From Alphaproteobacteria bacterium (GTDB taxonomy: Bacteria; Pseudomonadota; Alphaproteobacteria; Rhizobiales; JAKIUO01), in the NCBI GenBank assembly GCA_024280895.1, contig JAJRPI010000019.1:15556-79555 (forward strand): DNA of 64,000 nt. Direction: 5' to 3'. The notes beneath the pieces are model-generated. The model made no database searches. It was not told where the DNA came from and worked only from the letters and a program-made list of their open reading frames with translations. Shown one piece after another: positions 231 to 16,025 of this stretch (its first letter is position 1; every line of letters begins with the position of its first letter). The translations under genes and the position numbers were made by a program.

Positions 231-244
231 TTGATCTATGTCAT
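231..244 (+). promoter_or_regulatory. FNR/FixK-type anaerobox upstream of ccoN
   Basis: TTGAT-CTAT-GTCAT versus TTGA-N6-TCAA consensus; expected position for a cco operon. Confidence 0.65.
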
Positions 245-6022: not shown

Positions 6023-8232
6023 TTCCCTCGACGCAAAAACGCAATATTGCCGCGCAAAGACCGTCTACTGAAAAACAGCAATCGAGCAAACGCCGTCTTG
6101 ACCTTGCTGTTGATGGCATCACCTGTCCCGCCTGCATGACGACCATTGAACAAGGCATAGGCAATATGCCGGGCATTGGCGAGGTTGTGCTTAATTACAC
6201 AACGCATCGGCTGACCATCGAAGGACATGAAGGCGTTCCTAATCTCGAAGCCGTCATCGGCAAGCTTGATCAACTGGGCTATAAGGGGCGCCCCTACGAA
6301 TTAAGCACAGCTGGCCTGGCGCAGGTACGGGCCGAAAAACATCTTTTACGCGCTATGGCCGTTGCTGGATTTGCCTCTGCCAATATCATGATGATGTCGG
6401 TTGCGGTCTGGTCGGGCAACAGCTCTGGCATCGAAAGCTCCACACGTGATCTGTTCCATTGGATATCGGCCATGATTGCGCTGCCTGCCGTCACCTATGC
6501 GGGGCAACCATTTTTTCTCAGCGCTTTTGCGGCCCTCAAAGGGCGTCATCTCAACATGGATGTACCCATCTCGCTGGCGGTCATCCTGGCGCTTGCCATG
6601 TCTCTCGCCCAGACCATTTCCCACCAGCCCGATACCTATTTTGATTCTGCGGTCATGTTGTTGTTCTTTTTGTTGATCGGCCGTTATCTTGATTTACGCG
6701 CCCGCAACCGTACAAGAGACCTTGGACAAAATCTTATGGCGTTGCAAAAGCCAACGGTCACGAGAATAGCCAATGACAACACAATGCAAGAATGTCCCGT
6801 ATCCCTCATTCAACCTGGCGATCGCATCCTTGTACCTATGGGGGCGCGCATCGGCATTGATGGGGTCATTTCACAAGGATCGAGCGAACTTGATACCAGC
6901 TTGATCACTGGGGAAAGCACACCAAGCACAAAAATCGTTGGTGACAAGGTCTATGCGGGCACCCTTAATCTTGGCGCTCCCTTGCAAGTGATCGCGGATG
7001 CTGCGGGAGACAATACCCTGCTGGCGGAAATCAGCGCGCTCATGGACAAGGCCATGCAAAAACGCGGGAAATATGTGCGCCTAGCCGACAAGGCTGCGTC
7101 TCTTTATGCCCCCGTTGTACATCTTGTGGCTCTGCTTACGCTGATCGGCTGGCTGCTCTTGTCAAATGGTTGGCAACCCTCCCTGCTGGCCGCTATTGCC
7201 GTTTTGATCATTACTTGTCCTTGCGCGCTGGGCCTTGCGGTGCCGGTGGTTCAGGTAGTGGCGACAGGAGCTTTGTTTCGTCGCGGTATCCTAGTTAATG
7301 CGGGAGATGCGCTTGAGCGTCTTGCGCTAATCGATACCATTGTCTTTGACAAAACCGGCACCCTAACTGAACCAGATCCGGCCATTCTCAACTTAAAAGA
7401 GATTAGCAGTAATGATCTGCATGATGCCGCACGGCTTGCCCGCTCCAGTCATCATATTCTGGCCCGAGCCATCGCTCCTCATGCCAAACGCTCCGCGCTT
7501 ATTCCTGACGTCAAGGAAATTGCTGGTAGCGGCGTCATGGGCCAGCTTGGCGGCCAACAATTGAGACTTGGATCGCAAGCGTTCTGCATGAATGACACCA
7601 GTGAGCAACAGCCCTCCCCCAACCCCAAAGAACAGCGATCCGAGCTATGGTTTCGCCGTAACAACGAGCCACCAATACGATTCCAATTTCATCAAGACCT
7701 CAAAGAAGACGCCGTTGAGACCATTCGTTCTTTACGCTCACTTGGCTTCAAGCTTGAGATCTTATCGGGAGATAATTCTGGTGCCGTTGCCAAAGCCGCG
7801 CAAACCCTTGGCATCGAGACTTTCAGATCGCAGGTCAAACCAAAAGACAAAATTGCTCATATAGAAAGCCTGCGTGCAGCTGGTGCCCATGTCATGATGA
7901 TCGGCGATGGGCTCAATGATGCCGCTGCCCTGCAGGCCGCCAGTGTATCGGTTGCCCCAGCCAGCGCACTTGATATTACCCAAGGGGCGGCCGATATTGT
8001 CATCGTCGGCAATCAGCTAGGACCATTGCTCGCACTCATCACGATTGCCCGCAAGGCCCGCAAACTGATCGTGCAAAATTTCTACTTCGCCGCGCTCTAC
8101 AATATTGTTGCCATTCCACTGGCCGTACTGGGCTATGTGACCCCTTTGCTTGCCGCCTTGTTCATGTCTGGTTCGTCCATCGTCGTTACGCTCAATGCGC
8201 TTCGCGCTCAACTGATACGAAAGGAACAATAA
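6019..8232 (+). CDS. ccoI: Cu-transporting P1B-ATPase CcoI/FixI
   Basis: N-terminal CPAC, TGES, CPC, DKTGT, GDGLND, YN..P..M motifs. Confidence 0.95.
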   Translation: MIPSTQKRNIAAQRPSTEKQQSSKRRLDLAVDGITCPACMTTIEQGIGNMPGIGEVVLNYTTHRLTIEGHEGVPNLEAVIGKLDQLGYKGRPYELSTAGLAQVRAEKHLLRAMAVAGFASANIMMMSVAVWSGNSSGIESSTRDLFHWISAMIALPAVTYAGQPFFLSAFAALKGRHLNMDVPISLAVILALAMSLAQTISHQPDTYFDSAVMLLFFLLIGRYLDLRARNRTRDLGQNLMALQKPTVTRIANDNTMQECPVSLIQPGDRILVPMGARIGIDGVISQGSSELDTSLITGESTPSTKIVGDKVYAGTLNLGAPLQVIADAAGDNTLLAEISALMDKAMQKRGKYVRLADKAASLYAPVVHLVALLTLIGWLLLSNGWQPSLLAAIAVLIITCPCALGLAVPVVQVVATGALFRRGILVNAGDALERLALIDTIVFDKTGTLTEPDPAILNLKEISSNDLHDAARLARSSHHILARAIAPHAKRSALIPDVKEIAGSGVMGQLGGQQLRLGSQAFCMNDTSEQQPSPNPKEQRSELWFRRNNEPPIRFQFHQDLKEDAVETIRSLRSLGFKLEILSGDNSGAVAKAAQTLGIETFRSQVKPKDKIAHIESLRAAGAHVMMIGDGLNDAAALQAASVSVAPASALDITQGAADIVIVGNQLGPLLALITIARKARKLIVQNFYFAALYNIVAIPLAVLGYVTPLLAALFMSGSSIVVTLNALRAQLIRKEQ

Positions 8233-8456
8233 TGGATTTCGTATATGTGCTTCTACCACTAGCACTTCTACTTGGATTTATTGGTCTTATGGCCTTTATG
8301 TGGACGTTGAAGTCGGGACAATATGACGATCTTGATGGCGCAGCCTGGCGCGCCATTATGGACGATGATCAAGAGCTCAACCCCAACTTCAAACAGCCGC
8401 CCAAAGACGAAAATAATCCACAGGCTCCTGTTGATAAACGCGATACTCAGGCTTGA
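8232..8456 (+). CDS. ccoS: cbb3 maturation protein CcoS/FixS
   Basis: TM segment then W..KSGQYDDLDG.A.R. Confidence 0.93.
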   Translation: MDFVYVLLPLALLLGFIGLMAFMWTLKSGQYDDLDGAAWRAIMDDDQELNPNFKQPPKDENNPQAPVDKRDTQA

Positions 8457-8592: not shown

Positions 8593-8640
8593 TTATTTGG
8601 CTTTTAAGTGATTTCCGCAATTTCACTGACATCGCCGAAT

Positions 8641-8993
8641 ATTTCATGGAAGTGCACGCCATGAAAACCCAGTACCGCGTATCAGTATCAAATTGTTGTG
8701 TAAAATTGTAAGTCGCGTAAGTAATTGTAAGGGCTGTTTTGTGCGTACATTATTACGAACAGCCTGAGTAAACAGAGTGGTATTTGTACCCATCAGTACG
8801 TAACGTAAAACTGTTGTACTTATGTAGTCCGCGTATTTTAAGTGTAGTAGGTTGTGTTTGAAACGGTCTTTTAAGACTTGTTCAAGAGTTCGTATTGAAT
8901 TGTTCATGTAGTGGCATATAAAATATAATACCCACCCGCGCATGATATCTAATAAAAAGGACAGGGAACCGCGAACCCCTGTCCTTTTTTATT
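8641..8993 (+). ncRNA. Candidate GUA-repeat noncoding RNA (~350 nt)
   Basis: 5' hairpin TTTCATGG/CCATGAAA (8642-8666); 22 GTA triplets in 8672-8910; internal hairpins; intrinsic terminator at the 3' end; no credible ORF. Confidence 0.5.
8951..8993 (+). terminator. Intrinsic terminator (bidirectional-looking)
   Basis: AATAAAAAGGACAGGG-loop-CCCTGTCCTTTTTTATT. Confidence 0.8.
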
Positions 8994-9084
8994 TGCTCCA
9001 TTTTTCTTTTCTACAAATCCAGACATGTAATGTTTAATACTGCAAAACTCTGCACGCTCTTATTTCTTTGATGATCTGGAAAAG

Positions 9085-9117
9085 TAAAAAAAACCCCGCC
9101 ATAAAAGGCGGGGTTGT
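9085..9117 (-). terminator. Intrinsic terminator of minus-strand small transcript
   Basis: Minus strand AACCCCGCC-TTTTAT-GGCGGGGTTTTTTTT, with no annotated minus-strand gene upstream. Confidence 0.75.
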
Positions 9118-9158
9118 AAGTTGTGGTGCAAATGAATGCACCGGCTTGCGAGAGGAAG

Positions 9159-9245
9159 CTAGTCAAACAGAAAATTCTGCAGGATCGTCTGCCAGTAGAA
9201 CCACATAAACCGCAAAGGGTTGATGATGATTGAGGCAGTATCCAT
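9159..9245 (-). CDS. Possible 28-aa small hydrophobic/aromatic peptide
   Basis: MDTASIIINPLRFMWFYWQTILQNFLFD*, lying inside the predicted transcript; no clear Shine-Dalgarno. Confidence 0.3.
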   Translation of the reverse strand: MDTASIIINPLRFMWFYWQTILQNFLFD

Positions 9246-9296
9246 TGGGAAACCAGCAACCAGGACCAATATAATCAGAAGATCAAGTGATCCGAA

Positions 9297-9310
9297 ATGA
9301 CTTATATCAA
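9297..9310 (-). promoter_or_regulatory. FNR/FixK-type box
   Basis: Minus strand TTGAT-ATAA-GTCAT, the same half-sites as the ccoN box; TATATT at 9268-9273 gives -41.5 geometry. Confidence 0.55.
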
Positions 9311-9523
9311 TAGATCGCAATATTCGCAATCATTAATATTTGGATGTGACCTTTTGCGCATTCGGCGGCTTCCCTCTTCCAAAATAAGTCAGTTGGCCGA
9401 TGATACATTACAAATGAGATATAATGGATTATTGAAGCCACCCTTACCCTATTCGCCATAATTGAAACAACAAAATTGCAAAAACTCTGAACATTATACT
9501 AAAAAACCGGAGCCCTGACCGAA

Positions 9524-12663: not shown

Positions 12664-13890
12664 TTAGAACTTGATGCGAGCGCCAGCCATGATCTGATTG
12701 ACGTTACTTGTAGCAACATTATCATTATCCCAGCTGCGATAAGCGATATAGAGCTCGGTAGCTGCACTATCGAAGTGCTGTACTACACCCAGACCCCACA
12801 TTGTGGTGTCCCAGTTCCCAGCTGCAAGAACTCCATTATCACCATCATAGTCATATTCGCCATATTCGGCGTAGATGCTGGTATTTCCCATGCCAGTAAA
12901 GTCACGGTTTACACCACCCTGGAGATGCCAGTATTGCTTGTCATAGATGTCAGCGGCATTACCTGCATTGTTGAAACCGCCGTCGTTTTCGGTACCAGCT
13001 GCAAAAGCAATGTTAAGGCCTGTTGGTGTATGCATCAACGAAGCTGAACCTGTGACATTCGAACCGTTAGTTCCATCATCATAGAAGGTATAACCAATGC
13101 CAGCCGCAATGCGGATAGGGCCAAATTCTCCGGCATAACGAAGAGCCATATCCCAGCCATCAGTGTCATAGTTAAGAGCACCAAAAGCAGTTGGGCCATT
13201 AAGATCAACCCAAGCTACGGAGTATGTGAACCCGCGCAGTGTTGGTGATACCCAAGCGATGGTCTCATGAACACCTTGCTCAAGATTGAAACCATTCAAT
13301 GACGTAGCATTCCAAAGATTTGCCTCAGAAGTACCTGTTACACCGCGACCACCAAGAGAGATCTCGGCAACGCCATCGGTTGGAACATAAGCATGACCTA
13401 TAACAAAAGTACCGAGTCTGGCATTTTTGAAGTAGATGAAGTTTTTGTCAGTCTTCAATGGTGAAACAAAACCAGGACCATGACTTGCGCCAGCTTGTGT
13501 AAGCGTGCCGCTGTTACGATCTTGTGTAACGCGAGCCCGCAGAACATAGCCAACGGTCCAAGTGCTTGTTAGAGCCGCGCTGCCAGCAAACTGGAAGCGT
13601 GATCCGGAAACACCATGGCCACTTGAATAAAATTCATCTTTGCCATTTTCGTCTTCAATCCAGCCGATGTCGCGAGCGACCCAACCTGAGATTGTCAATG
13701 AAACCTTACGATTTCCTTTGCGAGCTGTTGTTGCTTCAAGTTCTGCAACGCGCTCTTCGAGGTCTGCACAACAGTCACCGCCAAGATCGGCAGCTACTGC
13801 TGGTGTCAGAGCCATTCCGCCCATCAGAAAACCAGCTGCAGCTACGAGAGCCAACGGGCTGGATGTCTTCTTGAGTCCCCCAATAGTCAT
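12664..13890 (-). CDS. Outer-membrane porin (Hyphomicrobiaceae-type), copy 1
   Basis: Signal peptide, ADLGGDCCADLEERVAELE coiled-coil, beta-strand-rich body, C-terminal Phe (GARIKF). Confidence 0.88.
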   Translation of the reverse strand: MTIGGLKKTSSPLALVAAAGFLMGGMALTPAVAADLGGDCCADLEERVAELEATTARKGNRKVSLTISGWVARDIGWIEDENGKDEFYSSGHGVSGSRFQFAGSAALTSTWTVGYVLRARVTQDRNSGTLTQAGASHGPGFVSPLKTDKNFIYFKNARLGTFVIGHAYVPTDGVAEISLGGRGVTGTSEANLWNATSLNGFNLEQGVHETIAWVSPTLRGFTYSVAWVDLNGPTAFGALNYDTDGWDMALRYAGEFGPIRIAAGIGYTFYDDGTNGSNVTGSASLMHTPTGLNIAFAAGTENDGGFNNAGNAADIYDKQYWHLQGGVNRDFTGMGNTSIYAEYGEYDYDGDNGVLAAGNWDTTMWGLGVVQHFDSAATELYIAYRSWDNDNVATSNVNQIMAGARIKF

Positions 13891-14813: not shown

Positions 14814-16025
14814 TTAGAACTTGATGCGCATACCAGCAAGGATCTGCTGAACATCGCCATCTACGATATTATCATCTTCCCAGTTACGATACGCAACATA
14901 CAATTCTGTTGATGCTGAGTTGAAGTTCTGAACGATACCCAGACCCCACATGACAGTATCACCTGTGCTAACTGCATTACCATCGTCATAATCACCATAC
15001 TCACCATAGAGGCTTGTATTTCCAACGCCGAAGAAGTTCTGGCTGATGCCACCTTCTACATGCCAGAACTGACGATCACTGGTGTCAGCGGCGAGCGTGT
15101 TAACACCACCGTCAAGCTCAGTACCAGCAGCAAATGCGACGTTCAAACCGGTTGGCGTATGCATCAAGGTGACTGAACCCATGACATTTGAACCATCTAC
15201 AGCAAAGCCGCCTGAATTGGTAGAATCATCGGTGGTTGTATAACCGATACCTGCAGCGATACGGATTGGACCAAATTCTCCAGCGTAGCGAAGAGCCATA
15301 TCCCACAAATCGACGCCTGAGTCATCTGTCGCAATGTCATTTTGGTCAACCCATGCAACGGCGACGGTAAAGCCAGCGATTGTTGGTGAGACATAGGAGA
15401 TCAGGTTTTGAGCACTGCCCTGCTGAAGGTCATAGGAATTAATGCCAGCAACACCGTTCCAGCCATTACGACCAGCTGCATCGCCAGTGATGCCGCGACC
15501 GGCGAGAGAGATGTTAGCAACTCCATCGGTTGGAGCATATGTGAAACCAGTTGTGAGAGTACCCAGTTGAGCATGTCTCAAAAAGACAAAGTTTTGATCA
15601 ACATTTGTGGTTCTGGCAGTGTTAACTTGGCCAGCTGCTCCAATAGAACCTGTAAGACCACCTGCTGCACGGAGGCGCAGACGATATCCAGCTGTCCAGT
15701 TTGCAGACATTTTGGCGCTACCTGTGAACCAAACGCGAGATCTGGAGGGTCCATGACCGGCTGCATAGAATTCGTCACGGCCTGAGCCATCTTCGATCCA
15801 ACCAATGTCACGAGCGACCCAACCTGAAATTGTTAGTGAAACTCTGCGATTTCCCTTGCGAGCAGTTGTCGCTTCAAGGTCAGCTACGCGCTCTTCGAGA
15901 TCCGCACAGCAATCACCGCCCAAATCAGCAGCCATAGCTGGTGTAAGAGCCAAACCGCCGATAAACATACCTGCAGCGGCTACGATGGCCAGGCTGCTTG
16001 TTGACTTTAAAAGTCCCCCAATCAT
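14814..16025 (-). CDS. Outer-membrane porin, tandem paralog (copy 2)
   Basis: Near-identical N-terminal segment and internal blocks to copy 1; ends GMRIKF. Confidence 0.88.
   Translation of the reverse strand: MIGGLLKSTSSLAIVAAAGMFIGGLALTPAMAADLGGDCCADLEERVADLEATTARKGNRRVSLTISGWVARDIGWIEDGSGRDEFYAAGHGPSRSRVWFTGSAKMSANWTAGYRLRLRAAGGLTGSIGAAGQVNTARTTNVDQNFVFLRHAQLGTLTTGFTYAPTDGVANISLAGRGITGDAAGRNGWNGVAGINSYDLQQGSAQNLISYVSPTIAGFTVAVAWVDQNDIATDDSGVDLWDMALRYAGEFGPIRIAAGIGYTTTDDSTNSGGFAVDGSNVMGSVTLMHTPTGLNVAFAAGTELDGGVNTLAADTSDRQFWHVEGGISQNFFGVGNTSLYGEYGDYDDGNAVSTGDTVMWGLGIVQNFNSASTELYVAYRNWEDDNIVDGDVQQILAGMRIKF

Follow-up and report, generated by a model that had tools for sequence, protein, structure and literature searches.

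The minus strand between the cbb3 oxidase cluster ccoNOQP-ccoGHIS and a divergently oriented gene for a 413-aa protein very probably carries a genuine non-coding RNA gene that is restricted to its genus. We regard this unit as new, and as FnrS-like in its inferred role, not by descent. The window, i.e., the whole stretch of 64,000 nucleotides analysed here, lies on contig C27 of a 3.36-Mb genome that is 98% complete (G000); the genus comprises six genomes (G000–G005) and is the only one in its family. The preliminary description proposed that the locus encodes an anoxia-induced regulatory RNA of ~175 nt. Conservation of the whole RNA in five of the six genomes, together with a promoter spacing that is fixed in all six, gives strong comparative support to the reading as a non-coding RNA, and no peptide is kept; as regards the inducer, an iron-sulfur FNR is less likely than FixK. 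The features of the locus are compiled in Table 1.

The 413-aa product matches no NCBIfam or Pfam family, and its look-alikes are all annotated as "hypothetical." A second conserved non-coding unit is located on the plus strand at 8640–8995 of the window, convergent on the sRNA; in the five genomes aligned, it consists of a variable GUA-rich body followed by a conserved block and a terminator.

Table 1. Features of the sRNA locus and its surroundings (window coordinates).
Feature	Position	Strand	Remarks
ccoN promoter reference box TTGATCTATGTCAT	231..244	plus	invariant in 6/6 genus genomes
ccoN	from 360		COX1 family match
ccoS	8232–8456		last-named cco gene before the sRNA unit
Predicted sRNA, 177 nt	9086..9262	minus	full copies in 5/6 genus genomes
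Intrinsic terminator	9086..9115	minus	98% paired; one A-U pair replaced by G-C in 2 copies
Open A/U-rich strand before terminator, ACAACUU	9116..9124	minus	ACAACUU 7/7 invariant
P4 hairpin GGUGCA/UGCACC	9125..9142	minus	100% paired; one C-G pair replaced by U-A in G002
Open linker UCUCGCAAGCC, candidate seed B	9143..9153	minus	predicted mostly unpaired in 5/5; UCUCGCAA invariant
P1 3' strand GACUAGCUUCC	9154..9164	minus	
P3 short hairpin	9167..9180	minus	92% of cells paired; double change at one pair
P2 long hairpin, variable sequence	9182..9243	minus	3/55 positions invariant
Open junction strand UCCCAAU, candidate seed A	9244..9250	minus	in 6/6 copies; predicted unpaired in 5/5 full copies
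P1 5' strand	9251..9261	minus	pairs with 9164–9154, closing the 5' domain
-10-like hexamer TATATT	9268..9273	minus	23 nt after box
FixK/FNR-type box TTGATATAAGTCAT (TTGAT-ATAA-GTCAT)	9297..9310	minus	class II activator position
Conserved AT-rich block ATTGYGAATATT	9319..9330		upstream of box; present in 6/6
-10-like hexamer TAATAT	9334..9339	plus	also 23 nt from box
Partly conserved block, presumably resembling a RegA/PrrA site	9345..9360		upstream of box
Divergent 413-aa gene	from 9524	plus	

Promoter and Terminator of the Unit

The box upstream of the RNA has the same half-sites as the box of the ccoN promoter, including GTCAT, which confirms the preliminary description on this point; the TATATT hexamer, the GGUGCA/UGCACC helix and the terminator with its eight U were likewise found as described. 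The terminator combines a GC-rich stem (9115–9092) with eight U at 9093–9086. The reported centring of the box at 41.5 nt holds if it is counted from T9262, but changes to 42.5 nt from G9261, which would be position +1 with TATATT taken as positions -12 to -7; the start, inferred from this hexamer, is thus 9262 or 9261. For comparison, one FixK2 box has been placed 40.5 bp from a mapped start (PMC5582078). Measured to the conserved 5' end of the sRNA, the box centre lies at 41.5 nt in all six genomes of the genus, and the 34-nt spacer between box and RNA contains no indel though its sequence has diverged in G002 and G004. The box itself is identical in G003 and G005 and occurs as variants in G004 and G002, the second half-site of the latter departing from the consensus (AGCAA), with one half-site change in G001. 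In the -10-like hexamer of the sRNA, the first and last T are found in six of six genomes and TA...T in four.

Boxes with up to two mismatches are common (74 matches in the window vs. 45 expected), which would favour a chance grouping of a terminator and a promoter-like sequence from which no transcript is made. This explanation is barely conceivable, because sequence, spacing and fold are all conserved across genomes with a median protein identity of about 76%. In addition, 513 kb of intergenic DNA, delimited by gene calls made in this analysis and surveyed by criteria set after the locus had been seen, contained 34 boxes, four of them with an in-register -10 and one, that of the sRNA, also with a terminator; the same three counts averaged 13.25, 0.3, and 0 in 20 Markov controls.

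Further blocks are conserved upstream of the box. The AT-rich block ATTGYGAATATT is a candidate contact for a regulator or the polymerase. The block at 9345–9360 may resemble a RegA/PrrA site. A TGCG(G/A)C-like conserved block, which we liken to such a site, occurs upstream of both boxes, at 200–212 of the window for ccoN and at 9345–9360 for the sRNA.

As a -10-like hexamer stands in the same register on the opposite strand, the box may also be bidirectional, or mainly serve the divergent gene. This hexamer reads TAATAT in five and TAATGT in one of the six genomes; it is thus better kept (6/6) than the sRNA's own (TA...T in 4/6), always lies 23 nt from the box, and is joined to it by a strongly conserved spacer. 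On this basis the sRNA gene could be real while the box mainly drives the 413-aa gene via a long leader, leaving the sRNA constitutive or otherwise regulated. We consider this arrangement unlikely: the spacing on the sRNA side is equally fixed in all six genomes, the distance from the box to the divergent start codon is 213–301 nt with a poorly conserved middle, and the plus-strand hexamer makes up half of an AATATT repeat that may itself be a protein site. Moreover, both promoters may be real.

Conservation and Predicted Fold of the RNA

A DNA search matched all five congeners, each time next to the 413-aa gene. Full copies of 173–182 nt are present in G000, G002, G003, G004, and G005, always located with ccoS on one side and the 413-aa gene on the other, and three sequencing runs of unrecorded kind, examined as contigs, showed only variant DNA copies. 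In G001 (L004:1378–1537), unrelated sequence takes over some 37 nt into the sRNA, the promoter being retained, and a search of this genome for a second copy found none. In this one case of a broken copy, one base of the box also no longer fits the consensus. Downstream of it lie genes that we took by eye to be hydrogenase-like, instead of the cco genes. The interrupting sequence presumably resembles the start of a transposase, but had no match in Pfam.

In the predicted fold, helix P1 encloses the open strand UCCCAAU and the hairpins P2 and P3, and is followed by the linker UCUCGCAAGCC, hairpin P4, the ACAACUU strand and the terminator. Conservation is highest in the open strands and P1: invariant positions number 15 of 23 in the 5' strand, 19 of 22 in the P1 3' strand plus linker, and 13 of 18 in P4. 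P2 by comparison keeps its shape and not its sequence, a long hairpin being predicted in each of the five full copies. The whole sRNA folds with z = -6.3 relative to shuffles, and without the terminator z still ranges from -2.0 to -4.1 in all five full copies. Taken over P1, P3, P4 and the terminator stem as the named helices (four in all), pairing holds in 98% of cells and three pairs show double changes, values as high being reached by 6 of 500 shuffles; these figures come from five related sequences, a thin basis on which alignments can beat shuffles without structure. The P1 pairing GCUGGUU/GACUAGC is predicted with a probability of 0.72–1.0 in all five full copies. Eight of its nine pairs never vary and no compensatory change occurs, and therefore P1 rests on energy.

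This fold disagrees with part of the preliminary description, which had proposed a hairpin ACUAGCUU-loop-AAGCCGGU presenting an anti-SD-like CU-rich loop. The inner four pairs of that hairpin have a probability of 0.024 here and of 0–0.07 in the four other full copies, forcing it costs 2.8 kcal/mol, and it is broken in G002 with no compensation in any copy. The supposed loop is instead predicted to be the open linker UCUCGCAAGCC, and the strand GACUAGCUUCC to pair with the 5' end.

A coding function was also considered. A frame of 28 residues (AUG at 9245, stop at 9159) is open in G000, and its AUG-GAU is kept in all copies. Among the full copies, of which there are five, its length is 28, 14, 4, 27, and 11 codons, and this variation argues that the unit is non-coding; the residues after Met-Asp are unrelated in G004 and G002, and the frame lacks a preceding ribosome-binding site. 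A short mRNA for this peptide is thus extremely unlikely.

The Activator Acting at the Box

Seven CRP/FNR proteins encoded by G000 exceed the Pfam cut-off, one of them with an ETVSR helix. This protein contains two scattered cysteines and no iron-sulfur cluster set, and its highest score is against the FixK model (141 bits, below that model's cut-off of 300; FnrL, 115 bits). It has orthologues in all five congeners, none with a cysteine cluster. No cysteine-cluster FNR was found in G000 (98% complete) or, with this query, in four of the five congeners; G004 alone among the five was seen to encode a further CRP/FNR protein, whose N-terminus is rich in cysteines (L056:1489–2310). Since the genome's only FNR-type DNA reader is without iron-sulfur cysteines, FixK is preferred over FNR. 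Contig C59 carries what we recognised by eye as a FixL-like and FixJ-like pair. FixK and FnrN use a common box and differ in the cysteine domain, as stated in the available part of PMC4999443. Taken together, the scores of the ETVSR protein on the FixK model, the FixLJ-like pair, the shared box and the invariant box of ccoN point to FixLJ-FixK as a likelier activator than an iron-sulfur FNR, and the sRNA is probably induced by FixK at low oxygen.

Alternatively, the box could be read by a nitric oxide-responsive regulator of the NnrR/DNR type, which would make the sRNA part of a denitrification response. The genome encodes a protein that we take by eye to be NnrR-like; it has its own box, TTGACAATTGTCAA, and lies next to presumably nor-like genes. 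The DNA target, moreover, is common to FNR, FixK, and DNR according to an excerpt of PMC2908626. The half-sites of the sRNA box are, however, those of the ccoN box and not of the nor box, and we judge this alternative very unlikely.

Perfect TTGAT-N4-ATCAA boxes were observed in G000 at C57:5212, C59:90644, C64:41998, and C86:16926. The genes that they precede are, by our naming by eye, soxB-like, fixL-like, unnamed, and phosphate-transporter-like, respectively. This distribution suggests a regulon that reaches sulfur oxidation.

Known Small RNAs, Mode of Action, and Candidate Targets

The preliminary description had likened the unit to FnrS and AbcR, and it named an Rfam scan as a check. The scan assigns it to neither: no family reaches its cut-off at the locus, and the 27 matches at E-values up to 10 in the 1.4-kb region are mostly terminators. 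FnrS (RF01796) of the Enterobacteriaceae resembles the unit in having an FNR-family activator box before an sRNA, here at the class II position (41.5 nt, 6/6). FnrS has two separate pairing regions, and two are also predicted here. It differs in length (a model of 119 positions vs. 177 nt), fold, bacterial class, and regulator (FNR vs. likely FixK); its model has no match at the locus and its best place in the genome is elsewhere, at 28.4 bits vs. 60. FnrS is made without oxygen and represses many mRNAs, as summarised in the available part of a review (PMC8139620). The same source, to the extent accessible, describes PcrZ of Rhodobacter sphaeroides as a pairing repressor induced at low oxygen in dependence on PrrA and FnrL, and PaiI (Pseudomonas) and DenR (Paracoccus) as sRNAs of anaerobic respiration or denitrification (PMC8139620). 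PcrZ is without an Rfam match here, and its control by FnrL is thought to be indirect, unlike the activator-position box of our unit. A likeness may lie in the possible PrrA/RegA-like block upstream of this box. PaiI and DenR are regulated by NarL or an unknown regulator and also have no Rfam sequence match. With trans-acting sRNAs that are activated by an anaerobic regulator the unit has in common its own promoter, an intrinsic terminator, and the lack of a conserved peptide.

AbcR1 and AbcR2 (alpha-r15) of the Rhizobiales expose C/U-rich motifs able to meet Shine-Dalgarno sequences. The family is absent from the 27 Rfam matches mentioned above, and the C/U-rich strands of our RNA are predicted to lie open in a junction and a linker instead of in hairpin loops. 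AbcR1, furthermore, is controlled by the LysR-type regulator LsrB (PMC8844928, part of the article). The best-scoring Rfam match was MmgR/SuhB (RF00519), which covers the 3' hairpin and terminator with 25.3 bits; this identity was rejected because the score is below the cut-off of 41 bits and the MmgR loop motif is absent. A better MmgR/SuhB candidate exists at C2:173059–173135 of the same genome (37.6 vs. 41 bits). 6S RNA (RF00013) was rejected as well, as it has no match at the locus and the 6S RNA of this genome is encoded on contig C32.

No homologue was found outside the genus among the genomes searched. By DNA search, one of 55 other genomes matched, in the terminator only. A covariance search of 151 genomes of the order with model R1, in which 18 candidates were scored per genome, gave outside matches of at most 28.8 bits vs. 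153–198 bits for full copies; the 12 outside matches inspected were terminators, most of them behind coding sequence. Model R2, which omits the terminator, returned nothing below an E-value of 0.27 in five genomes with close porins, and two matches of about 24 bits without the seeds in 150 genomes of the class. These wide model searches scored 18–21 candidates per genome and have a correspondingly limited sensitivity. The linker motif with one mismatch occurred in 4 of 395 outside genomes, fewer than its reversed control, three times inside long ORFs. Among all GTDB genomes, an exact 19-mer had five matches, four in alphaproteobacterial/Hyphomicrobiales MAGs and one in an unrelated genome, and a pattern search of metagenomes gave two matches, neither with other parts of the sRNA. 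The combination of box and UCCCAAU was present at 14 places beyond the sRNA's own loci in 301 genomes; all 14 were inspected and most are coding sequences or leaders, with controls that were all zero and look uninformative. One look-alike was noted in G068 (L178:1419–1569, minus strand), in 1 of 60 genomes and without an Rfam match. Its perfect FixK/FNR box is divergent from a CRP/FNR-type gene, and the unit of ~100 nt, in which a UUCCCAAU strand is open, ends in a terminator-like element and lies upstream of a multiheme cytochrome gene.

We propose the following mode of action. When oxygen falls, FixK (under FixLJ) would activate the ~177-nt sRNA together with ccoNOQP. The RNA would act in trans with Hfq, whose gene is present in all six genomes, and its open strands UCCCAAU and UCUCGCAAGCC would pair with the ribosome-loading regions of other mRNAs and thereby lower their translation. 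Pairing RNAs that use Hfq usually combine short, exposed C/U-rich stretches with an A/U-rich one that precedes a U8 terminator. By its position, ACAACUU is likely the Hfq contact. We infer transcription, induction, dependence on Hfq, and repression by pairing in this chain, and predict the fold; as a whole, a FixK-induced, Hfq-dependent pairing repressor is the reading towards which we lean, with somewhat less assurance than for its induction by FixK.

In a scan of 3127 gene starts in G000, the linker seed found its best site, of 11 pairs, 34–24 nt before fccA, whose product matches the cytochrome subunit of flavocytochrome c sulfide dehydrogenase (PDB 1fcd_C, E-value 3e-55). G003 and G005 have an identical site (-17.4 kcal/mol), G002 has a weaker one (-14.3) and G001 a changed one (-15.2, calculated with the G000 seed); in G004 it is deleted (-9.9; second copy -9.1), though this genome keeps the sRNA. 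The fccA leader may therefore be regarded as the best target lead, and as a lead only. Neither seed was clearly above 12 shuffled seeds when 497 orthologue pairs of G000 and G002 were compared, a set drawn from 1.23 Mb of the about 3.0 Mb of G002: seed A gave counts of 4/6/16 against shuffled means of 1.9/3.5/10.8 and maxima of 4/6/15, and seed B 1/1/7 against means of 1.9/3.4/9.7.

Porins were rejected as targets. In both porin genes of the window (14814–16025 and 12664–13890), the first codons can pair with seed A, yet ATTGGG also stands at the start in 12 of the 22 porins listed from outside the genus, and after accessibility the two rank 67 and 84; because the motif is common in outside porins and the porins rank low, this pairing is not evidence. 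Irrespective of the sRNA, porin genes of many families of the order (loci L139–L165 in other genomes) have the same start, ATG ATT/ATC/TTT GGG GGA CT, in which the GGG codon occurs once among the 58 glycine codons of one porin. The first porin codons may thus be a widely kept regulatory site.

Instead of repressing mRNAs, a low-oxygen RNA could serve as a protein ligand or as a sponge for another small RNA, with the closed 5' domain as the binding scaffold. This would agree with the large size of that domain, which keeps its shape while its sequence drifts, with the lack of a significant target set, and with the second conserved non-coding unit convergent on the sRNA. The invariant open C/U-rich strands and the A/U-rich strand before the U8 terminator are the customary layout of RNAs that pair by means of Hfq, however, and 6S identity is out, since the 6S RNA is encoded elsewhere (contig C32); we therefore think such a role rather unlikely.

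Literature searches yielded no alphaproteobacterial sRNA for which direct activation by FixK has been shown, with the qualification that start-site tables in the supplements of rhizobial studies could list some; nor did the accessible part of PMC7143759 contain a FixK-driven sRNA. One regulon study suggests that unannotated small RNAs may account for FnrL sites that lack a regulated gene (PMC2908626). More speculatively, and in our opinion with quite a small chance of being correct, an sRNA switched by FixLJ-FixK might pair with the fccA leader and lower sulfide oxidation by flavocytochrome c at low oxygen, from a box that may fire both ways. If true, this would be an RNA link from oxygen sensing to sulfide oxidation in an alphaproteobacterium. 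The reach of the finding is limited to one uncultured genus and its targets are candidates only; within this scope, the sRNA is a well-bounded candidate for the missing FixK-activated arm, equipped with two defined seeds.
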